This document shows positions 23,399 to 36,123 of a DNA stretch of 64,000 bases, piece after piece (position 1 is the first letter of the stretch; each line of letters begins with the position of its first letter). The stretch lies in contig JBGPIA010000011.1 in the NCBI GenBank assembly GCA_041484665.1, positions 82,091 through 146,090 on the forward strand, read 5' to 3'. The notes under the pieces were generated by a model. That model was given only the letters and a program-made list of their open reading frames with translations. It was not told the origin of the DNA and did no database searches. The DNA is from Candidatus Krumholzibacteriia bacterium (GTDB taxonomy: Bacteria; Krumholzibacteriota; Krumholzibacteriia; JAJRXK01). Made by a program: the position numbers and the translations under genes.

Positions 23399-24621
<1,223 letters not shown>

Positions 24622-24622
<1 letters not shown>

Positions 24623-25440
24623 TGCTCTCGCACGCGACGATGCCCGCAGCGGGCCCCTACGACGATCCAGCCGTCTACGATATCCTCCACACCCCCGGAT
24701 CGGCGGCGGAGCTGGACACGGTGCAGCGCCTCGCGCGCCGCCACCTGGAAGCGCAGGGGCGAGGCCGGCGCCGGTACACGTGGCTCGAGCCGGCGTGCGG
24801 CACCGGGCGCTATCTGCGCCTGCTGGCGCGGCGCGGCGAGCACGCCGTTGGATTCGATCGTGACCCGGCGATGGTGGCGTATGCCCGTCGCGGGATGCGT
24901 GCGCTGGGGCCGCAGCGGCGCGCCCGCGTGCTGGTCGCCGACATGACCCGCTTCGCCGACCGGGTGGGGCCGCGCCGCATCGACATCGCCTTCAACCTCG
25001 TCAACACGATCCGCCACTTGCAGAACGATGCGCAGATGCAGGCGCATCTCATCGAGGTTGCCCGCGTGCTGCGCGCCGGTGGCCTGTACGTGGTGGGCAT
25101 GAGCCTGACGCAGTACGGAGCGGAATTGCCCAGCGAGGATCTCTGGGTGGGAAGGCGCGGCTCCTGCCGGGTGACCCAGCTCGTGCAGTACCTGCCGCCG
25201 GGGAGCCCGGGCCCCCGGGGGCGGATCGAAACTGTGATCAGCCATCTGATGATCGAGCGTCCCCGGGGCGTCGAGCATCGAGATGCGACCTACGACTTGC
25301 GCTGCTACGACGCCGCGCAGTGGCGTAAATTGGTGGAGCGTAGCCCGCTGCGGATCGTCGCGGCGGCCGATGCCCACGGCAACCCGATCGTGGACTGGAA
25401 TACTACCTATGTAGTTTTCTTGATGCGGTCCGCCCCTTGA
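24622..25440 (+). CDS. Class I SAM-dependent methyltransferase
   Basis: LEPACGTGR, ADMT, LRAGGLY; ATG overlaps the upstream TGA. Confidence 0.88.
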
Positions 25441-25511
25441 CAGGTCCGTCCCCGGGGGTGGACCTTGTCCCGGTCGCCCCTGGCTGTCCTGCGTTGTCCC
25501 CACCGGGGCAC

Positions 25512-25527
25512 GGGCATAGAAGCTGCA
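25512..25527 (+). promoter_or_regulatory. Candidate sigma54 (-24/-12) promoter of the porin-cytochrome operon
   Basis: gGGcatagaagctGCa has exact GG-N10-GC spacing, about 93 bp upstream of ATG 25620. Confidence 0.5.
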
Positions 25528-25619
25528 ACCTCAGCAGGGCCTCCGACCCTCGAGCTCGACCGGCGCGACCATTCCGGAGCGGTTTCGGGGCCGTCGGCCA
25601 CTGGCAGGCCAGGCTCAAC

Positions 25620-26546
25620 ATGGCGACGATCCAAGCACCCCGCGTGCCTTCCTCCCGCGCTGGCGCGGCCGAGCGTTCGGGGACCTCCCTCAATCCGCTC
25701 GCCATGCTGCCGAATCTGCTCCTGTTGGCGATCACGCTGGCAGGCCTTCCGTATTACGTGCTCGCGGCAGCCGCGCGACTGCGCAGCCCCTTCCATCCGT
25801 GGTTGAAATCGTCGGGCTACGTAGGACAGACGGCGGGCCTCGTGACGTTCGCTGGTTTCCTGTTCATGTGGCTCTACCCGATGCGCAAGCGGATGCGCCT
25901 GCCGCCCCGCGCCGGGTCGGTCCCGCAGTGGCTCGACGTGCACATCGTCGTAGGGCTCACACTGCCGCTGCTGGGCGCGCTCCACGCCGGCTGGCGCTTC
26001 CGGGGCCTGATCGGCCTGGGCTATCTGGCCATGCTCATCGTGTGCCTGAGCGGAGTGATCGGTCGGTATCTCTACGTCAGGATCCCGCGCAGCCGCGCCG
26101 GAGCCGAGCTGGACCGCGAGGAGGTCGCGGCGCAGCGCCGCCAGCTCCTGGCCGACCTGACGGAGGCCACCGGGCTCACCACCGAGGATCTGGAGCAGAT
26201 GCTGACCGTGCAGACGGTACGGGCGTCTCGCGGCAGGCTGCTGGGGGCGCTCGCGCAAATGGTGGTCGACGATTTCGCGCGCGCGCGCACCCTGCGCGCT
26301 TTGCGCAGGCGCTGGAAGGCGCGCGGGCCCGACGGTGCGACCCTGGACCGCACCGCCCTCAACCGCGGGCTCTCGCTCGCCCGAAGGGAGATGGCCCTCA
26401 GCCAGCAGGTCCGCCTGCTGGAGGCCACGCAGAAGATGTTCCGTTACTGGCATGCGGCGCACAAACCGGTCGCGATCGCGGCATTCGGCGCCGTCACCGT
26501 CCACGTGATCGTCGTGATCGCAGTGGGCTCGACCTGGCTCTGGTAG
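25620..26546 (+). CDS. Inner-membrane protein with conserved His residues (ferric-reductase/cytochrome b-like)
   Basis: About 5 TM segments; WLDVH, LHAG, SGVIGRYLY, WHAAHKP, VHVI. Confidence 0.75.
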   Translation: MATIQAPRVPSSRAGAAERSGTSLNPLAMLPNLLLLAITLAGLPYYVLAAAARLRSPFHPWLKSSGYVGQTAGLVTFAGFLFMWLYPMRKRMRLPPRAGSVPQWLDVHIVVGLTLPLLGALHAGWRFRGLIGLGYLAMLIVCLSGVIGRYLYVRIPRSRAGAELDREEVAAQRRQLLADLTEATGLTTEDLEQMLTVQTVRASRGRLLGALAQMVVDDFARARTLRALRRRWKARGPDGATLDRTALNRGLSLARREMALSQQVRLLEATQKMFRYWHAAHKPVAIAAFGAVTVHVIVVIAVGSTWLW

Positions 26547-26572
26547 GACGAAGTCGAGGCGGGAGCGCTCCG

Positions 26573-28015
26573 ATGGGAATGCTGCTCACCACACTGGCCT
26601 TTGCCGTCCTCACGGCCGCGCTCGTCGCCCACCACGTGCGCCGCGGCGCAGCAGCGCCGGGTCAAGCTTGCGCGCCCGTCGCGGCCTGCCCGCGTTGCAA
26701 GGCGGCCATCGCGCCTGGGACGACCCGCTGCTCGCGCTGTGGCGTTCCGCTGCAGGCCTTCGAAGTCGTGGCCGCCGCCAAGGCCAGCGAGGAGGTCAGC
26801 GAGGGCGGGGACAAGTTGCACGCGGTCGTGCGCGCGGACCTCTGCGTCGGCTGCGGGTCGTGCGTCTCCGTCTGCCCCGAGCCGGGCGCCATCCGGATGG
26901 ACCACAAGCTCGCCGTGGTGGCCAAGGCGCTCTGCGTGGGGCACGGCAAGTGCGCCGAGGCCTGCCCGGTGGGGGCCATCATCATGTCCACCGGCGCCGC
27001 GGTGCACCGCGTCGAGGTGCCGGAGATCGACATCCACTTCGAGAGCAACGTGCCCGGGGTCTACGTCGTCGGCGAGCTGGGCGGGCGTGGACTGATCAAG
27101 AACGCCATCAACGAGGGCAAGATCGCCGTCGAGCACATCGCCGACGAGCTGGGGGGAGGGTCACGCCGCTCACCGGACACAACGGGCGTCCACGATGTGG
27201 TCATTGTCGGATCGGGACCCGCCGGCCTCAGCTCCGGACTGCAGGCCCTCCAGTCGAAGCTGCGGTACGCTGTCCTGGAGCAGGGGACGCTCGCCGACAC
27301 GATCCGCAAGTACCCGCGGGCGAAGCTGCTGCTGGCCGAGCCGGTGACGGTTCCGCTGTACGGCGATCTGTGGGTGGCCGATGCTTCGAAGGAGTCATTG
27401 CTGAAGGTGTGGGAGACGGTCATCGCCAGCACGGGACTGCAGGTGCGCACGGGCCAACGTGTGGTCAACGTGGCACGCCACGGCGATCTGCTCCACGTCG
27501 CGACGCCCGACGCAGTGTTCCGCACGCGGCGCGTGGTGCTGGCCACGGGCCGGCGCGGGACACCGCGGCGCCTGGGGGTACCCGGCGAGGAGCTGGGCAA
27601 GGTCATCTATGACATCGCTGAGATGGAATGCTTCGCCGGCCAGCGGATGCTCGTGGTCGGCGGCGGCGACAGCGCCGTGGAGTCGGCGCTGGGGCTGGCC
27701 CGGCAGCCGGGCACGGTGGTGACGCTCAGCTACCGCGGCGATTCCTTCAGCCGCGCGAAGGAGCGGAACAGGACGAAGCTCGAGACGGCCGTCGCAGAGG
27801 GGAGCGTGCGCGCGCTGCTGCGTAGCGAGGTGCGGGCGGTCCACGAGCAGGAGGTCGAGATCGAGGTGGCGGGCAAGCGCAGCATGCTGCCCAACGACAC
27901 AGTGGTCGTGCGCATCGGCGGCGAGCCGCCCGCCGCATTCCTGAAGCAGATCGGCATCCGCATCGTCAAGAAGGACGTGCCGCTGCCGCAGGGAGAGGAG
28001 GCGATGGTTGGCTAG
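26573..28015 (+). CDS. Membrane-anchored 4Fe-4S ferredoxin / TrxR-fold FAD-NAD(P)H oxidoreductase
   Basis: N-terminal TM; CPRC/CSRC; CVGCGSCVSVCP and CVGHGKCAEACP; GSGPAG, ATG, GGGDSA..SYR. Confidence 0.88.
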   Translation: MGMLLTTLAFAVLTAALVAHHVRRGAAAPGQACAPVAACPRCKAAIAPGTTRCSRCGVPLQAFEVVAAAKASEEVSEGGDKLHAVVRADLCVGCGSCVSVCPEPGAIRMDHKLAVVAKALCVGHGKCAEACPVGAIIMSTGAAVHRVEVPEIDIHFESNVPGVYVVGELGGRGLIKNAINEGKIAVEHIADELGGGSRRSPDTTGVHDVVIVGSGPAGLSSGLQALQSKLRYAVLEQGTLADTIRKYPRAKLLLAEPVTVPLYGDLWVADASKESLLKVWETVIASTGLQVRTGQRVVNVARHGDLLHVATPDAVFRTRRVVLATGRRGTPRRLGVPGEELGKVIYDIAEMECFAGQRMLVVGGGDSAVESALGLARQPGTVVTLSYRGDSFSRAKERNRTKLETAVAEGSVRALLRSEVRAVHEQEVEIEVAGKRSMLPNDTVVVRIGGEPPAAFLKQIGIRIVKKDVPLPQGEEAMVG

Positions 28016-30359
28016 CACGCGCCGGGGAACGCTTGCATGGACGCAGCGTCCACCGACGCCGACCCCGCTGGCCCAGCATCCGTTGGCGCAGCGTCCGGCG
28101 CCGCCGCGCCGCACGCTGTGGCCGCCTCAAGCGGCTAGCGCCGTGCGCACGACGGCCACGGCCCTGGGTGCCGCGCTGGCCCTGACGTGCGTCGTCACCG
28201 CAGCCGCCCGGGCGCAGATCTCGCCGGGCCCGCTGTCGCGCGCCCACGCCAGCCTGGAGGGCAACCTCCACTGCGCGAAGTGCCACGGTGGCGGAGGCGA
28301 GAGCGCGCAGGACCAGCGGTGTCGTGCTTGTCATGAGGAGATCGACTGGCTCATCCGGCAGGAGCGGGGACTCCACGGGCACGAGGTGAAGGGGAACTGT
28401 AAGAGCTGCCATCCGGAGCATGCCGGTGCCGGCTTCCAGCTGATCGTGTGGAAGGAGGGCAGCCCGGAGCGCTTCGACCACACGCGCACGGGCTGGGCGC
28501 TGGAGGGAAAGCATGCGACGGTGCAGTGCAAGGAGTGCCACAAGGCGAGCTTCCAGCAGCCGCAGATCGTGGCGCGGATGCAGCGCAAGGACAAGGCAGC
28601 GAGCTGGCTGGGTCTGGACTCCGGTTGCCGCTCCTGCCACGAGGACGTGCACCGGGGGACGCTTGGAGTGGATTGCATGAAGTGCCACGACACGAAAGCC
28701 TGGAAGCCGGCGCCGCGATTCGACCACGCGCTGTCGGACTTCCCGCTCACCGGCAAGCACGCGGCGAGGGCGTGCGCGAAGTGCCATGCCACGCCCGAGC
28801 TGAAGCTGGTGAAGGATCGGCAGGGGCACGCGATTCCGCTCTTCAAGCCGCTGCCGCACCAGGAGTGCTCCGCGTGCCATAAGGACCCCCATGCCGGCTC
28901 GCTGGGGGCCGCTTGCACCAAGTGCCACACGACCGACGACTTCCATCGCATCGACCACAAGACGTTCAATCACGACCTGACGCGCTACCCGCTGCGGGGC
29001 AAGCACGCGGCGCTGGCGTGCGCGAAGTGCCACGATCCGGCCACTGCGTGGGGTAAGAAGCCGGCGTTCGCTACGTGCGGCTCCTGCCACACGGATCCCC
29101 ACGCTGGCCAGGCTACGAGCGCGGGCAAGCCGGCCGATTGCGCTGCCTGCCACAGCGTCCAGGGCTTCAAGCCGGGCACCTTCACGGTGCAGCAGCACGC
29201 CGCAACGCGCTACCCGCTGGACGGGCGGCACCAGCAGGTGAAGTGCTCCAGCTGCCATGGCCGCAAGCCACCGGGGGATGCGGCCAAGGCCGCGGCCACC
29301 GTCGGCAAGGCTGGCGTGTGGTTTCGTCCGACGCACGACCGCTGCGGTGATTGCCACGCTGAAGTGCACGGCGGCCAGCTCGCACACCGGCCCGACACGG
29401 GGGCCTGCGAAGGCTGTCACACCACGCAGGGCTGGCGCCCCAGCACCTTCACCGTGGCGGCACACGCCGCGCTGCGCCTGTCGCTGGAAGGCCGCCACGG
29501 CGCGATCGCCTGCTCCGCATGCCACGGGCCCGACCGCAGTGGGCTGCCACAGCTGCCAGGGCCCAAGGTCCTGGGCACCGCCCGCGTCGCATTCACGTTC
29601 ACCGACGTCTCCTGCACGGCCTGCCATTTCGATCCCCATCACGGACGATTCAGCGCCGGGGGCGAGCGTGCCCGGTCCAAGGGTTGCCTGGACTGCCACG
29701 ACCCGCGCGCGTTCCGCCCGTCAAAGGTGGACATCGCGGCTCACGCCGCGGCCCGCTTCGCGCTGGACGGCGCCCACCGCGCGGTGCCGTGCTTCGCCTG
29801 CCACCAGGAGCTGGCCGGCGCGGGCGGAGCGGCCAGCGGGGCGGCAAAGGCAGCCGCGAACGGTGCGGCGAACGGAGCGGCGAATGGGGCGGCGAACGGG
29901 ACCGCGAGCGGGACCGTGAATCGGGCAGCGAACGCGGCCCCGATCGTGGCCACGGCGGCTGGTTCCGACACCGCCGCGGCTCGCGGGCGCGCACGCTCGA
30001 CGCTGGTGGCTGCCACCGCCGCGGTGCGCCGCGCGTTGCCGTTCGCGATCGACAAGCGCGCATGCCGCGACTGTCACCGCAGCCCCCACGGCACACAGTT
30101 CGACGCACGGAAGGACCATGGAGCGTGCGAGAGCTGCCACGGTCTGGAGAGCTTCAAGCCCGCTGTGGGCTTCCATCACGCCAAGGACTCGTCGTATCCA
30201 CTCGAGGGGGCGCACACGAAGGTTCCCTGCGCGCGTTGCCATCCCACGAAGACTGGCAGCGACCGACGCCCGCAGGTGATCTACCGTCCACTTTCCACTC
30301 GTTGTGAGAGCTGTCATGGGGCGGCGCCCGTAGCGCCGCTGAAAGGGGAGCTGCGATGA
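28008..30359 (+). CDS. Multiheme cytochrome c (23 CxxCH)
   Basis: Manual count of 23 CxxCH; signal peptide ending AARA-QISPG; repeated FDH..FPL.GKH modules. Confidence 0.95.
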   Translation: MASTRRGTLAWTQRPPTPTPLAQHPLAQRPAPPRRTLWPPQAASAVRTTATALGAALALTCVVTAAARAQISPGPLSRAHASLEGNLHCAKCHGGGGESAQDQRCRACHEEIDWLIRQERGLHGHEVKGNCKSCHPEHAGAGFQLIVWKEGSPERFDHTRTGWALEGKHATVQCKECHKASFQQPQIVARMQRKDKAASWLGLDSGCRSCHEDVHRGTLGVDCMKCHDTKAWKPAPRFDHALSDFPLTGKHAARACAKCHATPELKLVKDRQGHAIPLFKPLPHQECSACHKDPHAGSLGAACTKCHTTDDFHRIDHKTFNHDLTRYPLRGKHAALACAKCHDPATAWGKKPAFATCGSCHTDPHAGQATSAGKPADCAACHSVQGFKPGTFTVQQHAATRYPLDGRHQQVKCSSCHGRKPPGDAAKAAATVGKAGVWFRPTHDRCGDCHAEVHGGQLAHRPDTGACEGCHTTQGWRPSTFTVAAHAALRLSLEGRHGAIACSACHGPDRSGLPQLPGPKVLGTARVAFTFTDVSCTACHFDPHHGRFSAGGERARSKGCLDCHDPRAFRPSKVDIAAHAAARFALDGAHRAVPCFACHQELAGAGGAASGAAKAAANGAANGAANGAANGTASGTVNRAANAAPIVATAAGSDTAAARGRARSTLVAATAAVRRALPFAIDKRACRDCHRSPHGTQFDARKDHGACESCHGLESFKPAVGFHHAKDSSYPLEGAHTKVPCARCHPTKTGSDRRPQVIYRPLSTRCESCHGAAPVAPLKGELR

Positions 30360-32977
30360 GACGCGTACCCGGAGCGGTCTGGCTGGCCTTTCTGCTCGCG
30401 GCCGCCAGCCTCGCTATCGCCGCGGTCGGGGATCAGGTCCCGCCCCAGCAGCAGCAATCGGGGCAGCCCAAGTCCGCGCAGCCGCGGGCCGTGAAGCCAC
30501 TCGCCACACAGTCGCAAACCGCACCATCGCAGTCGACGAGGACGCAGGCATCCAAGCCGCAGGCGACAAAGCCACAGGCCACGCAACCGCAGGCATCAAA
30601 GCAGCAGACGGCGCCGTCGCAGGCCACGAAGGCGCAGGTAGCAAGACCGCAGGCCGCGCAGTCGCCGGCCGCCACGGCCGCTCCCGGCCAGCCGCCCTAT
30701 CCGCACGGAGCCTTCCGTGAGGACTGCGCCCTGTGCCACCGTCCCGACAGCTGGACGCCGGCGCGCATCAGCGTCCGCTTCGACCATTCGCGCTTCGGAT
30801 TCAAGCTCGACGGAGCGCACGCCTCGGCGTCGTGCCGGGGCTGTCACAAGAGTCTGGAGTTCGCCGCTGCTCCGACCGCATGCATCGACTGCCACCGCGA
30901 CGTCCACCAGGGCGAGTTGGGCACCGAATGCTCCGGCTGCCACGGTACGCAGAGCTTCGTCGACCGCGGTGACCAGGTGCGGATGCACCGCCTGACGCGC
31001 TTCCCCCTGGCCGGAGCGCACACCGCACTGGACTGCGCATCGTGCCATCCGCTGGCGGCCCCGGGAGCCCTGACCTACGTCAAGACGCCTACGACGTGCG
31101 AGGCCTGCCACATGAAGGACTTCCGGGCGACCACCAATCCGGACCACCAGGCGGCGGGCTTTACCCACGAGTGCACGACCTGCCACTCGGAGGCCAGCTG
31201 GAGCCGCGCTCGGTTCGACCACGCCGGCACCAACTTCCCGCTCACGGGCGCCCACCAGATCGTGGCCTGCAACAGCTGCCACACCGGAGGGACCTTTGGA
31301 GCGCTGGCGACCACCTGCGTCTCGTGTCACCAGGCCGACTACAACAACACGACGAATCCGAACCATCGCTCAGGCGGCTTCCCCACCGATTGCACCCAGT
31401 GCCATAGCACGGTGAATTGGAGCGGCGCGACCTTCAACCATGCGACGACCGGCTTCGCGCTGACCGGCGCGCACGCCGCGGCGCAGTGCTCGCAGTGCCA
31501 CACGGGGAGCAGCTTCAGCGGGCTCTCGTCCACGTGCGTCTCGTGCCACCAGGGCGATTTCAATGGCACGACGAATCCCGATCACCGCGCCGGAGGCTTC
31601 CCCACGGATTGCACGCAGTGTCACAGCACGGCGACCTGGAGCGGCGCGACCTTCAACCACGCCACGACCGGCTTCGCACTGACCGGCGCGCATGCCGCGG
31701 CACAGTGCGCGACGTGCCACGCGGGGGGCGTTTTCACCGGCCTATCGCCCACATGCGTGTCATGCCATCAGAATGACTACAACGGCACGACCAACCCCAA
31801 TCACCGCACGGCGGGCTTCCCCACCGATTGCACCCAGTGCCACACGACGGCGACGTGGACCGGCGCGACGTTCAACCACGCCACGACGGGCTTCGCGCTG
31901 ACCGGCGCGCACACGGCGCTGCAGTGCGCGCAGTGCCATGTGGGGGGCAATTACAGCATTACGTCGCCCGCGTGCGTGTCGTGCCACCAGAACGACTTCA
32001 ATAGCGCCACGAACCCCGATCACCGGGCGGCTGGCTTCGCCACCGATTGCACCCAGTGCCACAGTACGGCCAGCTGGAGTGGCGCCTCGTTCAACCACGC
32101 GACGACCGGCTTCGCTCTGACCGGCGCGCACACGGGGCTGCAGTGCGCGCAGTGCCACGTGGGGGGCAATTACAACATCACGACGTCTGCGTGCGTGTCG
32201 TGCCATCAGAACGACTTCAACGGCACGACGAACCCCAGTCACCAGACGGCGGGATTCCCCACCGATTGTACGCAGTGCCACACCACGGCCACCTGGCCCG
32301 GCGCGACGTTCAACCACGCGACGACCGGTTTTGCTCTCACCGGCGCGCACACGACGCTGCCGTGCGCACAGTGCCACGTGGGGGGCAACTACAACATCAC
32401 GTCGCCCGCCTGCGTGTCGTGCCACCAGACTGACTTCAACGGCACTACCAATCCCGATCACCGCGCGGCGGGCTTCCCCACCGATTGTAGCCAGTGCCAC
32501 AGCACGGTGAATTGGAGCGGCGCTAGCTTCAACCATGCGACGACCGGCTTCGCGCTGACCGGCGCGCACGCCGCGGCGCAGTGCGCGCAGTGCCACGTGG
32601 GGGGCAACTATACGAATGTGTCGCCCGCGTGCGTGTCGTGCCACCAGACCGACTACAATGGCACGACCGATCCTCCGCATGCGACGGCGGGCTTTCCCAC
32701 CGATTGTTCACAGTGCCACAGCACGGCGACGTGGGCAGGAGCGACGTTCGACCACGATGCGGCCTACTTCCCCATCTACTCGGGAAGGCACAAAGGCAAG
32801 TGGGACGCCTGCAGCACGTGCCACACGAACTCTGCGAACTACACCGTGTTCAGTTGCTTCGGCTGCCATCCGCACGACGACCAGGCGGGGACCGATAGCC
32901 ACCACCAAGGGCAGAGTGGCTACCGGTACGAGAGCACGTCCTGCTACCGCTGCCATCCCCGGGGGAACGCAGGATGA
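30356..32977 (+). CDS. Multiheme cytochrome c (31 CxxCH) with tandem triheme repeats
   Basis: Manual count of 31 CxxCH; signal peptide; Gln/Pro-rich spacer; 73-aa repeats. Confidence 0.95.
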   Translation: MRRVPGAVWLAFLLAAASLAIAAVGDQVPPQQQQSGQPKSAQPRAVKPLATQSQTAPSQSTRTQASKPQATKPQATQPQASKQQTAPSQATKAQVARPQAAQSPAATAAPGQPPYPHGAFREDCALCHRPDSWTPARISVRFDHSRFGFKLDGAHASASCRGCHKSLEFAAAPTACIDCHRDVHQGELGTECSGCHGTQSFVDRGDQVRMHRLTRFPLAGAHTALDCASCHPLAAPGALTYVKTPTTCEACHMKDFRATTNPDHQAAGFTHECTTCHSEASWSRARFDHAGTNFPLTGAHQIVACNSCHTGGTFGALATTCVSCHQADYNNTTNPNHRSGGFPTDCTQCHSTVNWSGATFNHATTGFALTGAHAAAQCSQCHTGSSFSGLSSTCVSCHQGDFNGTTNPDHRAGGFPTDCTQCHSTATWSGATFNHATTGFALTGAHAAAQCATCHAGGVFTGLSPTCVSCHQNDYNGTTNPNHRTAGFPTDCTQCHTTATWTGATFNHATTGFALTGAHTALQCAQCHVGGNYSITSPACVSCHQNDFNSATNPDHRAAGFATDCTQCHSTASWSGASFNHATTGFALTGAHTGLQCAQCHVGGNYNITTSACVSCHQNDFNGTTNPSHQTAGFPTDCTQCHTTATWPGATFNHATTGFALTGAHTTLPCAQCHVGGNYNITSPACVSCHQTDFNGTTNPDHRAAGFPTDCSQCHSTVNWSGASFNHATTGFALTGAHAAAQCAQCHVGGNYTNVSPACVSCHQTDYNGTTDPPHATAGFPTDCSQCHSTATWAGATFDHDAAYFPIYSGRHKGKWDACSTCHTNSANYTVFSCFGCHPHDDQAGTDSHHQGQSGYRYESTSCYRCHPRGNAG
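31200..32760 (+). repeat. Coding tandem repeat, 219-bp unit, about 7 copies
   Basis: Unit W.GA.FNHATTGFALTGAH..CxxCH..CVSCH..NP.H..GFPTDCxQCH is 73 aa. Confidence 0.9.
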
Positions 32978-34701
32978 CGCAGTTCCCGCGTCGAAGCGCG
33001 ATTGGCTGGGTCGTCATGGCAGTCGCCGCGCTCGCGCTTCTGGGAGGCGCGCCCTGCGTGGCGTGCGCGGCGCTCGCCGCGACGTCCGCGGCAACGGACA
33101 CGACGCCGTCAGCATCCGGCGCCACGCCGCGCATGATGACCGCGGGCAGGGTCACCTACCTGACCGGCACGACCGCGTACGTCGATCTCGGACGCGACGA
33201 CGGGCTGGGTGAGGGGGACCGTCTGGAGGTCGTTCGCGGTGGCAAGTCCGTGGCGACGCTGCAGGTGAGCTACGTGTCGTCGCACCGCGCTGCCTGTGCG
33301 ATCCAGCCGCCGGAAGCGACGCTCGCGGAGGGCGATCCGGTGCGCGTGGTGGCCCGCGCCACCCGCGCGGACGCGGCGGCGACCGCGCCCGTGGCCACAG
33401 CGTCGACCAACCTCGTGGCCGCGGCGCCGGTGCGCCGGAAGGGCTCCTGGCTCAACGAGATGGGGCTGCGGGGCCGCGTGGGCGGGCGGTTCCTCGGACT
33501 GAAGGACCGCAGCGGCACCGGTGCCAATCTCAAGCAGCCCGGTCTGGAGATGCGCGTCGACGGAACGCGGGTGGGCGGAGCACCCATCGACCTGGCGGTA
33601 GACGTCCGGGCGCGCCAGACATTCCAGACTCTGCCCGACGGGGGATCCCAGCACGCGGGCCAGACGCGCGTATACCGTCTCGCGACGACGTGGCACTTGC
33701 CCGATCCGCACTTCCACGTGAGTGTCGGGCGGCAATTCTCCTCCGCGCTCTCCACCGTCAGTACGTTCGATGGCGTGGAGGCGGAGCTCGATGCCGGACA
33801 GGTCGGCGTGGGCATCTTCACCGGCACCCAGCCCGGGCCCATCGATTACAGCTTCTCCACCGACGTCTGGGAGCACGGACTGTTCTTTCGGGTGCACGGG
33901 CCGGGGCCGACTGCGCAGATGGCGCAGGTGGGTCAGGGAGGGCAGATGGCGGCCCGTTGGGAGGTGGTGACGGCCGCGATCGGCTCGTACCAATCGGGCC
34001 AGATCAACCGTGAGTACCTCACCACCCAGGGCCGGCTCGACGCGCATGGGCTGTCGCTGTCGCTGTCCCAGGACCTCGACCTCAACCGCGGCTGGAAGCG
34101 GGACGCCGGCGAACAGGCCGTCTCGCCGACGAACACCTTCGTGAGCGCGCGTATGCGCGTAGCCCAGCGACTCGACCTGGACGGCGGGTTCGACAACCGG
34201 CGCAACATCCGCCTGTACCGTGACCGGATCACTCCGGAGACGGAGTTCGACGACACGTACCGGCAGGGGATCTGGGGCGGGAGCGGGCTGCGCGTCGGCG
34301 GTCACCTGCGCGTGGGAGCGACCGTCCGCAACAGCAGCGGCGGGGCCGCCGGCGCCTCGACGTCATGGGGTATGACCGCGGCCGCCAGCCGGCTGACCCC
34401 GGCGCAGGTGGATCTCCGGCTGCGGAGCACGCGCTACAACAGCGACCTGACCGAAGGGTGGATGCACACGCTCTCGGGCGGAGTGCGGCCGGGGCAGCGC
34501 CTGGGGCTCGAGCTGTTCGGCGGTGTCCGCACCGACCAGGGGAAGATCCAAGGCACCTCCGACGCGCGCGCCACGTGGTTCGGGGCCGACATGGACCTCG
34601 GCGTGGGCCGTCACTGGTACCTGGCGATCTCCGCAGAGCGGGACGAGCGGGGCCCGGAGCAGTTCGATCAGGTCTACGGCATGCTCAACTATCGCTTCTA
34701 G
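32974..34701 (+). CDS. Outer-membrane beta-barrel (putative porin of a porin-cytochrome complex) with small N-terminal beta domain
   Basis: Signal peptide; alternating amphipathic strands; C-terminal YGMLNYRF aromatic signature; coupled to the cytochrome gene. Confidence 0.8.
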   Translation: MTQFPRRSAIGWVVMAVAALALLGGAPCVACAALAATSAATDTTPSASGATPRMMTAGRVTYLTGTTAYVDLGRDDGLGEGDRLEVVRGGKSVATLQVSYVSSHRAACAIQPPEATLAEGDPVRVVARATRADAAATAPVATASTNLVAAAPVRRKGSWLNEMGLRGRVGGRFLGLKDRSGTGANLKQPGLEMRVDGTRVGGAPIDLAVDVRARQTFQTLPDGGSQHAGQTRVYRLATTWHLPDPHFHVSVGRQFSSALSTVSTFDGVEAELDAGQVGVGIFTGTQPGPIDYSFSTDVWEHGLFFRVHGPGPTAQMAQVGQGGQMAARWEVVTAAIGSYQSGQINREYLTTQGRLDAHGLSLSLSQDLDLNRGWKRDAGEQAVSPTNTFVSARMRVAQRLDLDGGFDNRRNIRLYRDRITPETEFDDTYRQGIWGGSGLRVGGHLRVGATVRNSSGGAAGASTSWGMTAAASRLTPAQVDLRLRSTRYNSDLTEGWMHTLSGGVRPGQRLGLELFGGVRTDQGKIQGTSDARATWFGADMDLGVGRHWYLAISAERDERGPEQFDQVYGMLNYRF

Positions 34702-34789
34702 CCGGGCGGACGGACTGCAGGCGCCACGTCGCCGAACCGTGAGCAGACCGCGGAAGACAGCGGTAGACAGCGGCCGACCGCGGCGCCGA

Positions 34790-35665
34790 TCAGGGGGCGG
34801 ATCGCTCGCGGATCACGGGGGCTGGGCCACTCGACAGCACCGGAAGGGACGCGCCCAGCACCACCCGATTCAGCCCCACCCGGCACCGCCGCGCCAGCAC
34901 CTGCACGCCCGCTGCGCGGGCCTCCTGCAGGGCTTCCGCAAAGCCGGGATCGATGTGCCGCGCGGCGCGCACGCTTTGGGCGTCGGGGCGCTGCACCACG
35001 AACAGCACGGCCGCCACGCACTTTGCATGCCTCGCCAGATCCGCGAGCTCGCGGAGGTGCCGTGCGCCGCGCGCGGTAACGGCGTCGGGAAACAAGCCGA
35101 CTCCGTCCTCGACCAGCGTCACGCTCTTCACCTCCAACAGCATGCGTCCTCGTACCGTACCGTCCGCCGCGATCCGCCGCGCCCTGTGCCGCTGCCCGCC
35201 GTTCGCCGCCGCCCACGGTCCCGCCGCGGCTCCGCGCGCGCCCGGGTCGCACAGCAGGAAGTCGAACCGGCTGTGCCCCACCGTGACCTCCGCCCGCTCC
35301 AGCGTCCAGGCGCCGAGCTCGGGCAGGGCGCCGGCCCGCAGCGCCGCCGCGACCAGGCGATTGGGTAACGTGGTGTCCAACGAGACCAATCCGCGGCCAC
35401 TGGGCGTCTGGACCAGCGCGGCCGACCAACGCGTGCGGCGCGGCGCGCCACCGCCGCGCCGCGCGCCCAACGCATCGCGCAGCCACACACGGCGGCCCGC
35501 GACCAACAGCTCCCGCAACCGTCCCGGATCGGCGAGGTGCGCGGTGACCACTCCGCCCGTCGCCGCCAGGCGGCAGCGCAGCACGAAGCGGTTGGGGCGC
35601 GTCAGGAAGCGCGCCTCGTGGAGAGGCGAGGGCCACGCAATCGAGACCAGCGGCATCGCGGCCAA
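34790..35665 (-). CDS. sfsA: DNA/RNA nuclease SfsA
   Basis: RPNRF, HLADPGRLRELL, SRFDFL, EVKSVTL, FPDAVTARGARHLREL. Confidence 0.93.
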   Translation of the reverse strand: MAAMPLVSIAWPSPLHEARFLTRPNRFVLRCRLAATGGVVTAHLADPGRLRELLVAGRRVWLRDALGARRGGGAPRRTRWSAALVQTPSGRGLVSLDTTLPNRLVAAALRAGALPELGAWTLERAEVTVGHSRFDFLLCDPGARGAAAGPWAAANGGQRHRARRIAADGTVRGRMLLEVKSVTLVEDGVGLFPDAVTARGARHLRELADLARHAKCVAAVLFVVQRPDAQSVRAARHIDPGFAEALQEARAAGVQVLARRCRVGLNRVVLGASLPVLSSGPAPVIRERSAP

Positions 35666-35700
35666 AGGAGAACGCGGCCGCGGTGGCGCGGCCCGTTCGC

Positions 35701-36123
35701 TCAGGCTTCCTCCGACCTCGACGGCTCGCTCTTCGGGGCTGCCTCGGGCCTGCCCTGCGAACCGTAGGGATAGGCGGGAAGCTGTGTGGGGCGGAAGACA
35801 ACCCTCGTAATCCCGTGTTGCGCGAGCTCGGTCAGGAGAGCGTCCGCGCTCTGGACCAGCCAGTTCATGTACTCCCGGGTCGCCTCCAGGCTCTGTCTGA
35901 CCTCCTCGACGGTAAAGGCGCAGGGCCAGGGCGGGTAGCAGGGCGGCCCGCCGGGGTCGACCACTGCGGGTGCATTCGGAACCGTGACGACGACCTGCTT
36001 GCCCCCGTCCTCCACTTGCTGCACCGCCCCGAGGAAGAGATCGCCGTAGAAGCGCATGGCGTTTTCGGTCAAGCGCAGCTCCTTCCAGGCCTGCCGCGCG
36101 TCGAACGGGATGGTCTTGTTCAT
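35701..36123 (-). CDS. Hypothetical protein
   Basis: RBS ggagagga before ATG 36123; protein-like composition; follows the kinase on the same strand. Confidence 0.65.
   Translation of the reverse strand: MNKTIPFDARQAWKELRLTENAMRFYGDLFLGAVQQVEDGGKQVVVTVPNAPAVVDPGGPPCYPPWPCAFTVEEVRQSLEATREYMNWLVQSADALLTELAQHGITRVVFRPTQLPAYPYGSQGRPEAAPKSEPSRSEEA

Follow-up and report, generated by a model that had tools for sequence, protein, structure and literature searches.

We find that a 64,000-nucleotide stretch of DNA (hereafter the window) from a Candidatus Krumholzibacteriia bacterium (GenBank assembly GCA_041484665.1, contig JBGPIA010000011.1, positions 82,091 to 146,090) carries five co-oriented genes, here called g1 to g5, which encode in this order a membrane His protein, a membrane-anchored Fe-S flavoprotein, a 23-heme and a 31-heme c-type cytochrome and an outer-membrane protein. 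By gene content, motifs and heme counts the cluster matches the published description of the PCC3 type of porin-cytochrome cluster, with the flavoprotein as an extra part. We see an even chance that this PCC3-type cluster, through its flavoprotein, takes electrons off NAD(P)H in the cytoplasm and carries them to the cell surface, bypassing the quinone pool. We give slightly less than even weight to its being a quinone-independent, NOX-like wire, in which electrons would run from the Fe-S flavoprotein through a di-heme b protein to 54 c-type hemes and a barrel, and thus to the surface.

The genes lie on the + strand between 25620 and 34701 and are tightly packed or overlapping: 26 nt separate g1 from g2, and g3/g4 and g4/g5 overlap by 4 nt each. 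As the window has a G+C content of about 70%, genes were called from open reading frames (ORFs) together with third-position G+C, and the calls bear out an earlier note on this DNA, which had claimed five co-oriented, close or overlapping genes. The order in the title of that note, with the flavoprotein first, is reversed, the membrane His protein being first and the flavoprotein second, and the position at which it let the cluster begin, 25512, is a GGG codon and no start. The likely start is the ATG at 25620, which agrees with the aligned N-termini of 43 orthologues of g1.

PCC3 is a predicted system that comprises, according to the main text of He et al. 2017 (PMC5566968), a porin, a very large 'extracellular' multiheme cytochrome, a periplasmic cytochrome and an inner-membrane protein (IMP), and this gene content is found in the co-oriented g1, g3, g4 and g5. 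The IMP of PCC3 and PCC4 is described there as a protein of about 300 aa with five transmembrane (TM) helices, an SGxxG motif on TM4 and a WX3HX13H motif on each of TM3 and TM5; g1 has 308 aa, AlphaFold2 helices that fit five TMs, an SGxxG motif and two WxxxHx13H motifs. The PCC3 cytochromes, again in the main text, have median heme counts of 34 and 21, are of low complexity, rich in T, S, A and G, built from repeats and sparing in residues per heme (PMC5566968), and a survey of Gallionellaceae gives 21–27 hemes for the periplasmic partner and 10–35 for the extracellular one (PMC9900912, main text). The 31 hemes of g4 and the 23 of g3 fall within these published ranges, at 28 and 32 aa per heme, respectively, and g4 consists of T, S, A and G to 43.9% and contains a 219-nt repeat. 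The hosts named in the main text of PMC5566968 are Alpha-, Beta- and Gammaproteobacteria, whereas those found here are the window's own uncultured phylum, with nearest records titled Latescibacteria/Krumholzibacteriia, and Gemmatimonadota, Acidobacteriota, Eisenbacteria and others.

What is new here is the flavoprotein partner, while the porin-cytochrome/IMP part is of the PCC3 kind that has already been published and is itself predicted. We found no description in the literature of a flavoprotein partner of PCC3 or of the cluster in these phyla, and the main texts of PMC5566968 and PMC9900912 make no mention of a PCC3 flavoprotein. In PCC4 subgroup II an IMP with the same motifs lies beside a cytoplasmic Fe-S gene (pfam13247), and in one genome the two are annotated as one gene; as given in the main text of PMC5566968, this Fe-S partner has no FAD/NAD(P)H domain, unlike g2. 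PCC4 is further described there as lacking an extracellular cytochrome and as having three small ones in the periplasm, with 4, 5 and 10 hemes, whereas the cluster in the window has both a predicted periplasmic and a predicted extracellular cytochrome.

The membrane protein g1 (25620..26546; ORF open from 25437), a PCC3-type IMP and predicted di-heme b carrier, has no family match in Pfam or NCBIfam. AlphaFold2 models it (pLDDT 87.5) with five long membrane helices, the fourth and fifth of which are separated by a helical insert. Across 44 aligned sequences the residues H108 and H122 in TM3 and H281 and H295 in TM5 are invariant, as is W277, and W104 is nearly so, which gives the two WxxxHx13H motifs W104-H108-H122 and W277-H281-H295; S144-G145-x-x-G148 in TM4 is likewise invariant, and no Cys is. 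Based on the four His residues we suggest that g1 binds heme b. The charge distribution would place its N-terminus and the helical insert in the cytoplasm, and we infer that H108 pairs with H281 near the cytoplasmic face and H122 with H295 near the periplasmic face. A search of the ESM Atlas returned only the protein's own family and its neighbours; two of the three clusters shown are named 'hypothetical protein' and one 'Pyridine nucleotide-disulfide oxidoreductase family protein'. Two close g1 homologues of 300–327 aa (P0166 and P0167) are labelled 'dihydropyrimidine dehydrogenase (NAD+) subunit PreT' by one source, a label ill-suited to a heme-type membrane protein that is probably spill-over from the adjacent flavoprotein gene.

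The flavoprotein g2 (26573..28015; 480 aa) begins with a TM helix, followed by HHVRRG, a zinc-ribbon-like Cys4 motif (CPRC...CxxC; Pfam DZR, under cut-off), a ferredoxin domain with two cluster-binding motifs (Fer4_21, 2.5e-12) and an FAD/NAD(P)H domain (Pyr_redox_3, 1e-41). The earlier note had called an FAD/Fe-S NAD(P)H module and a membrane His protein, and these domain calls hold: g2 has Rossmann motifs for FAD and NAD(P) and a ferredoxin part with motifs for two clusters, and g1 has two pairs of His. The N-terminal helix appears uncleaved and, with HHVRRG behind it, would leave the rest of g2 in the cytoplasm. The flavin domain has the thioredoxin-reductase fold without the redox CxxC: across 36 orthologues seven Cys are invariant (C91, C94, C97, C101, C121, C127 and C131), none of them in the flavin domain, and GxGPxG and GGGDxAxE are invariant as well. 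By these motifs and its seven Fe-S Cys, g2 is predicted to be a competent NAD(P)H/FAD/Fe-S module with no disulfide pair. An invariant R388, in '...SYRG', is presumably reminiscent of NADPH-type enzymes of the thioredoxin-reductase (TrxR) fold. The second cluster motif (26933–26968, residues 121–132) reads CxxHxxCxxxCP, with a nearly invariant H124 in place of the ferredoxin's second Cys, and is kept in the 36 orthologues and in a distant subfamily; it suggests that the second cluster, at the likely exit point, is His-ligated or of the 3Fe type. One distant g2 member (L114) has a Thr at the corresponding position in the first cluster motif.

The closest solved relative of g2 is YpdA/Bdr (7a7b, E 1.7e-45), and TrxR-type ferredoxin:NADP reductases match at 2.0e-24 to 1.8e-12. 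With these proteins (7a7b, 7a76, 3ab1, 3lzw) g2 has in common a fold of two Rossmann domains for FAD and NAD(P)H, to which it adds the TM anchor, the zinc-ribbon-like motif and the two-cluster ferredoxin, and from which the conserved active-site Cys is missing. It reaches 169.4 bits against the NCBIfam model for YpdA (TIGR04018, cut-off 339.9) and 74.3 bits against that for thioredoxin reductase (TIGR01292, cut-off 343.45), and falls into neither family; it has no invariant Cys beyond the Fe-S motifs. The 'GD'-type motif of the FAD domain apparently stands before GxGxxG in g2 and after it in the YpdA and TrxR-type relatives. A segment at 27035–27140 (residues ~155–190), 'FESNVPGVYVVGELGG...', precedes the FAD GxGxxG motif, and HMMER aligns it, non-significantly, with residues 278–293 of the YpdA chain, where the C-terminal FAD motif lies; the last 50 positions of the YpdA model have no counterpart at the g2 C-terminus. 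The thioredoxin-reductase fold of g2 may be circularly permuted.

A survey anchored on the porin, with the g5 profile run against one-genome-per-species contigs, gave 146 relatives, of which 80 loci were kept, all from other genomes; the synteny count used the 47 of these whose sequence extends 7 kb or more upstream of the porin and excluded the 33 that fall short of this. The g1 gene is present in 40 of the 47 and is accompanied by g2 in 39 of these 40, so that 39 of 47 loci have both. The earlier note had named beforehand, as a test of its proposal, the co-occurrence of the flavoprotein and membrane genes with the cytochromes in other genomes, and the proposal passes it. The order g1-g2-g3-g4-g5 of the window is found in 27 of 47 loci, and in ten g2 lies divergent and directly upstream of g1, all but one of them in Gemmatimonadales/Gemmatimonadota, a form from which the zinc ribbon is absent; two loci have both genes and a single called cytochrome. 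By their titles, carriers belong to Latescibacteria/Krumholzibacteriia, Gemmatimonadota, Acidobacteriota, Eisenbacteria, Binatia, Polarisedimenticolaceae and Myxococcales.

In a second survey, anchored on the flavoprotein and run over the phylum of the window (208 species genomes), each of the 14 close g2 orthologues adjoins g1, and g3 follows in 13, the fourteenth locus stopping at a contig edge. Members of a distant g2 subfamily (42–47% identity) adjoin distant g1 or g5 relatives; six 20-kb stretches around them have the order g1-g3-g4-g5-g2 (five) or g2-g1-g3-g4-g5 (one), and the TM anchor, CxxHxxCxxxCP, both WxxxHx13H motifs and SGxxG are kept. The g2 gene thus stays in the operon through four gene orders. 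Among the 208 genomes, 76 have g1 and g2, six g1 only, four g2 only and 122 neither, so that both are present in 76 of 86 carriers, and most of the single-gene exceptions are fragmented or incomplete assemblies. Ten genomes in which only the flavin domain of g2 was matched (E 1e-40 to 1e-62; frames of 534–1068 aa) were assigned to another family and excluded from the co-occurrence count. In one genome of the family to which the window's genome belongs, the g2 orthologue lies in three same-strand pieces (G026:C9:183549-184940; 56–58% identity) next to an intact g1, possibly as a frameshifted or decaying gene or as an assembly error.

Gene fusions join a g2-like to a g1-like protein. Seventeen proteins of at least 589 residues match the g1 profile, and four of them (P0244–P0247, 702–784 aa, one named as from a Planctomycetes metagenome-assembled genome) combine in a single chain the TM anchor, the Fe-S part, the FAD/NAD(P) part and the IMP with both His motifs. 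This fusion order agrees with the inferred topology, in which the g2 C-terminus and the g1 N-terminus would both be cytoplasmic. Ten of the 17 are polyferredoxin-IMP fusions of the kind that He et al. noted for PCC4. The other three (P0241–P0243) were rejected as fusions, having R/G/P-rich stretches that look out of frame, a truncated g1 part and one WxxxHx13H motif; we take them for frameshifts or merged gene calls. Considering the linkage, the fusions and the domain content together, we think that electrons probably move between g2 and g1 at the cytoplasmic face, and the same evidence suggests a direct coupling of pyridine nucleotides to the conduit.

The two cytochromes contain 23 (g3) and 31 (g4) CxxCH motifs, 54 in total, the count that the earlier note had given, and neither has a CxxxCH, CxxxxCH or CxxCK variant. 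Since nearly every Cys sits in such a motif (46 of 47 in g3, 62 of 62 in g4), the counts are far above chance. The g3 gene (28143..30359; ORF open from a TTG at 28008) matches Cytochrome_C7 (3e-25) and Cytochrom_c3_2 (1.7e-19) and has a Sec-type signal peptide that is normal when the likely start, a GTG at 28143 judged from the sequence, is used; the protein is predicted to be periplasmic. Between its 19th and 20th heme motifs, tandem repeats of 12 and 24 nt (29825–29951) encode an insert rich in Ala, Asn and Gly (…ANGAANGAANGAANG…), a disordered-looking spacer in the middle of this predicted periplasmic cytochrome.

The g4 gene (30356..32977; 873 aa) encodes a signal peptide, a linker of about 95 aa rich in Q, P, S, T and K, and then tri-heme repeat units, with Cytochrome_C7 matches over 8 stretches (2.8e-35) and a match to the MtrC/MtrF domain II/IV at 59.2 bits (cut-off 30). 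Its tandem array (31316..32756; Tandem Repeats Finder) has a period of 219 nt, 6.6 copies, 79% matches and a score of 1571, and each unit encodes 73 aa with three CxxCH motifs and three additional His. Among the relatives at loci L001–L080 the heme counts run 13, 16, 19, 22, 25, 28 and on up to 61, and 55 of 61 complete ORFs fit 13+3n, a series that matches gain and loss of the 73-aa tri-heme unit. The g3 count is almost fixed at 20 or 23 (20 motifs in 18 and 23 motifs in 24 of 45 complete ORFs). By analogy with PCC3, g4 would be the outer, extracellular cytochrome. The stretch between its signal peptide and first heme, rich in Q, P, S, T, K and A, is encoded in part by 45-nt repeats (30543–30670).

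The last gene, g5 (32974..34701; 575 aa), has no match in Pfam or NCBIfam and encodes a protein with a signal peptide and the C-terminal end ...NYRF, the predicted porin sheath of the conduit. In its AlphaFold2 model (mean pLDDT 81.4), with strands assigned by DSSP, a beta-sandwich (residues ~57–126) precedes a barrel of about 22 strands (165–574); the earlier note had set beforehand, as a test, that the last gene should fold as a barrel wide enough to hold a cytochrome, and the model, with its large barrel, does not speak against this. The best Foldseek matches are PapC/FimD usher pores and TonB-dependent receptors, and VIA-align gives 5t3r_D at Z 16.3, Cir and BtuB at about Z 15 (22-strand barrels of the TonB/SusC type) and MtrB (6r2q_B) at Z 12.2. 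A barrel of 22 strands is of the size class that houses the plugs of TonB receptors and is smaller than the 26 strands of MtrB. For PCC3 porins up to 42 transmembrane regions are predicted in the main text of PMC5566968, a figure from another predictor and with no lower bound, compared with the roughly 22 modeled strands of g5. There are 255 g5 homologues, all named 'hypothetical' among the best 120 matches listed, and the best 120 matches in the homologue lists all come from the same subfamily. The N-terminal beta-sandwich (32974–33400) has a weak FlgT_C match (E 0.012), and longer g5 homologues carry FlgT_C or AMIN domains in precomputed Pfam annotation; this sandwich probably serves for docking in the periplasm or lies on the side of the peptidoglycan. 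In some genomes a second g4-g5 pair follows in tandem behind the first. Porin-only or g4-like loci without nearby g1–g3, and tandem second g4-g5 pairs, were seen at L037, L063 and L077 and at L012, L015, L016, L022, L042, L051 and L069, and two of the seven partial loci are, by their titles, in genomes that have a full cluster as well (L012 with L006, L022 with L039). The outer module g4-g5 may be duplicated and exchangeable.

The arrangement follows the same logic as MtrCAB of Shewanella (PDB 6R2Q), namely a barrel sheath with an inner and an outer cytochrome. MtrA and MtrC are decahemes, and the Mtr conduit is fed from quinol via CymA. A comparison with hidden Markov models of the MtrCAB/MtoAB families, which the earlier note had recommended, gave a divided answer: the MtrC/MtrF domain II/IV of Pfam is above its cut-off in g4, while the NCBIfam models are far from theirs, with 31.7 bits against 192.2 for DmsE/MtrA (TIGR03508; g4) and 16.7 against 209.3 for OmcA/MtrC (TIGR03507; g3).

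We suggest the following route for the electrons. The FAD of g2 would be reduced by NAD(P)H at the cytoplasmic face, and the electrons would pass through the two Fe-S clusters, the second with His in place of its second Cys, to the cytoplasmic-side heme b of g1 (H108/H281) and across the membrane to the periplasmic-side heme b (H122/H295). The 23-heme g3, spanning the periplasm, would receive them there, and the 31-heme g4 would be reached through or at the 22-strand barrel g5, from where they could leave for an acceptor outside the cell, for example a mineral with Fe(III) or Mn(IV), humics or another cell acting as partner. Reducing power would be discarded along such a route, and not used to conserve energy.

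In this route g1 and g2 would form a split, NOX-like transmembrane NAD(P)H oxidase with a multiheme wire as acceptor. The likeness to NOX, FRE and STEAP proteins consists in cytoplasmic NAD(P)H and flavin feeding two b hemes, in the His pairs on the third and fifth helices and in outward transfer, and MsrQ-Fre of E. coli likewise pairs a membrane heme protein with a separate flavin reductase. The differences are that g1 has five helices and not six and stays below the cut-off of the Ferric_reduct profile (PF01794), that g2 has a thioredoxin-reductase fold with two Fe-S clusters and not an FNR-type domain, and that the acceptor would be a multiheme cytochrome, whereas it is O2, Fe3+ or MsrP in NOX, FRE, STEAP and MsrQ. 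The same parallel between the His motifs and ferric reductases is drawn by He et al. in the main text of PMC5566968.

A number of points weigh against this route. The PCC3 description that it builds on is itself a prediction, and all evidence presented here is computational. The operon includes an Fe-S flavoprotein gene, whereas proteobacterial PCC3 clusters are described without one in the main text of PMC5566968; one locus, L006, consists of g1-g3-g4-g5, and neither the 5 kb upstream of it nor the 10 kb downstream contain a g2; in seven of the 47 loci the porin is found with a g4-like cytochrome alone or without any cytochrome. The co-occurrence counts overstate the support, because related genomes are not independent. 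For the fold of g1, Foldseek against the PDB gave nothing at E <= 0.001, and a wide VIA-align search gave helical-bundle matches at Z 7–9.5 only, which is within the tool's stated noise for such folds; the di-heme bundles among them (4D2 at Z 8.9, CybB at 8.1, STEAP1/4 at 8.0–8.1 and FdnI at 7.2) are within that noise too, and as these values sit below the noise level for helical bundles we assign no fold to g1. Its Pfam scores for Ferric_reduct (E 6.2; 7.4 bits against 28) and Ni_hydr_CYTB (E 0.095) are under cut-off. No lipobox Cys and no lipid anchor were found in g4, unlike in the outer cytochrome of MtrCAB, which has a lipoprotein signal; as the lipobox Cys is absent, the N-terminal linker of g4 is a possible tether, and may tether or thread the outer cytochrome. 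The nearest relatives of the flavin domain, disulfide reductases and ferredoxin:NADP reductases, leave the direction of flow unfixed.

The predicted complex of g1 and g2, a further check proposed in the earlier note, also belongs here. It scored 0.34 (runs 0.24, 0.37 and 0.34), with 0.00 for the best of three controls, contacts agreeing by at least 33% between runs and a partner pLDDT of at least 75. The score reaches the mark attained by 116 of 157 solved complexes and 2 of 215 mismatched pairs, counts that are approximate here since the run used its own alignments, but it falls in the range of 0.60 and below, which holds 18 of the 157 solved complexes and both passing mismatches and in which a pass is more often wrong unless the pairing is already likely. 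The prediction thus lends weak support to the pairing.

The loci without g2 bear on the main rival, a quinol-fed PCC3 as in He et al., in which g1 would trade electrons with the pool of membrane quinones and g2 would be an auxiliary side input, either conditional or serving to poise or pre-reduce the b hemes. The IMP is modeled in the main text of PMC5566968 as a quinone-active cytochrome b, being likened to a ferric-reductase domain and proposed to exchange electrons with quinones, and because L006 has no g2 and proteobacterial PCC3 is described without a flavoprotein, the membrane protein apparently works with another electron source, which would be quinol following He et al. Six genomes of the phylum have g1 with no g2 detected, four of them fragmented or incomplete, and the sub-threshold likenesses of g1 to Ni_hydr_CYTB and FdnI are to quinone-reactive cytochromes b. 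On the other hand, g2 persists in four different gene orders, four proteins have it fused to the IMP, and ten more join the IMP to a polyferredoxin; because of this retention and these fusions, with flavoprotein or polyferredoxin, entry through cytoplasmic Fe-S centres seems to us to be usual in this family. A quinone site was not identified, and no test was aimed at one. On balance we hold quinol feeding with g2 as a side input to be rather unlikely, while taking it more seriously than the other alternatives.

As to direction, we favor outward flow on thermodynamic grounds, because NAD(P)H (about -320 mV) lies far below the potentials of minerals and c-type hemes and the inside-negative membrane would aid the exit of electrons. 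Electrons could instead come in from outside, with Fe(II) minerals, a cathode-like surface or a syntrophic partner as the donor, and be passed through g1 and g2 to NAD(P)+. It is true that PCC3 was first found among Fe(II) oxidisers and that the main texts of PMC5566968 and PMC9900912 discuss it as a system for the uptake of electrons; the ferredoxin:NADP reductases, to which the flavin domain is related, are also enzymes that reduce NADP+. The reduction of NAD(P)+ from Fe(II)-type donors would, however, be strongly uphill and opposed by the membrane potential, and the operon encodes no energy-coupling subunit by Pfam or NCBIfam. Also, no RuBisCO large subunit was found in the genome, which is 93.65% complete; other routes of CO2 fixation were not searched. 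We consider inward flow improbable for these reasons.

The family to which g2 is closest bears on another alternative, namely that g1 and g2 stand outside the wire and export reducing power to the periplasm, where it would help to mature or repair the 54-heme cytochromes, much as with DsbD/CcdA or MsrQ. The formation of 54 heme sites requires reduced CxxCH thiols, g2 has the thioredoxin-reductase fold and its best family match is a disulfide reductase, YpdA. That match stays at 169 against a cut-off of 340, the operon has no gene for a periplasmic partner resembling thioredoxin or MsrP, g1 has no invariant Cys and those of g2 are all Fe-S ligands. As neither protein has a conserved Cys besides these ligands, a thiol-disulfide relay is unavailable, and we rejected a DsbD/CcdA-like relay because the conserved Cys it needs are lacking in g1 and in the flavin domain of g2. 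A service role of this kind appears to us very improbable, and we return to the outward, NAD(P)H-fed conduit as the reading that we favor.

The cluster is preceded by genes for a Na/Ca exchanger and a methyltransferase and followed, on the opposite strand, by genes for a Ser/Thr kinase and a CHASE2 cyclase. As these flanking genes are unrelated, we bound the cluster at five genes, in agreement with the extent given in the earlier note. The longest ORF of the upstream methyltransferase (24160–25440) has an Arg/Gly-rich N-terminal extension of 150 aa that resembles out-of-frame translation of high-GC DNA, and the true start of this gene is probably near 24620. Promoter and terminator scans of 25200–35900 gave hits at chance level (1 against 0.4 expected and 4 against 3.4 expected, respectively). 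The sequencing runs listed as containing this DNA, 24 of 24, are sediment metagenome DNA, and there is no RNA run among the matches listed.

To our knowledge, the known outer-membrane electron conduits (Mtr, Pcc/Ext and published PCC3) are depicted as taking their electrons from the quinone pool. If our reading is true, a conduit that oxidises NAD(P)H at an entry of its own would be a different bioenergetic design, one that dumps reducing power or balances redox and does not serve quinone respiration. The five parts recur, in four gene orders and with fusions, in Gemmatimonadota, Acidobacteriota, Eisenbacteria and the Latescibacteria/Krumholzibacteriia group, and the carrier phyla are abundant and uncultured in soils and sediments. 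Many of these bacteria could thus have a so far unrecognised outlet for NAD(P)H, with minerals, humics or partner cells taking up its electrons, and this would change how markers of 'iron oxidation' and 'iron reduction' such as PCC3 are read in metagenomes from soils and sediments.

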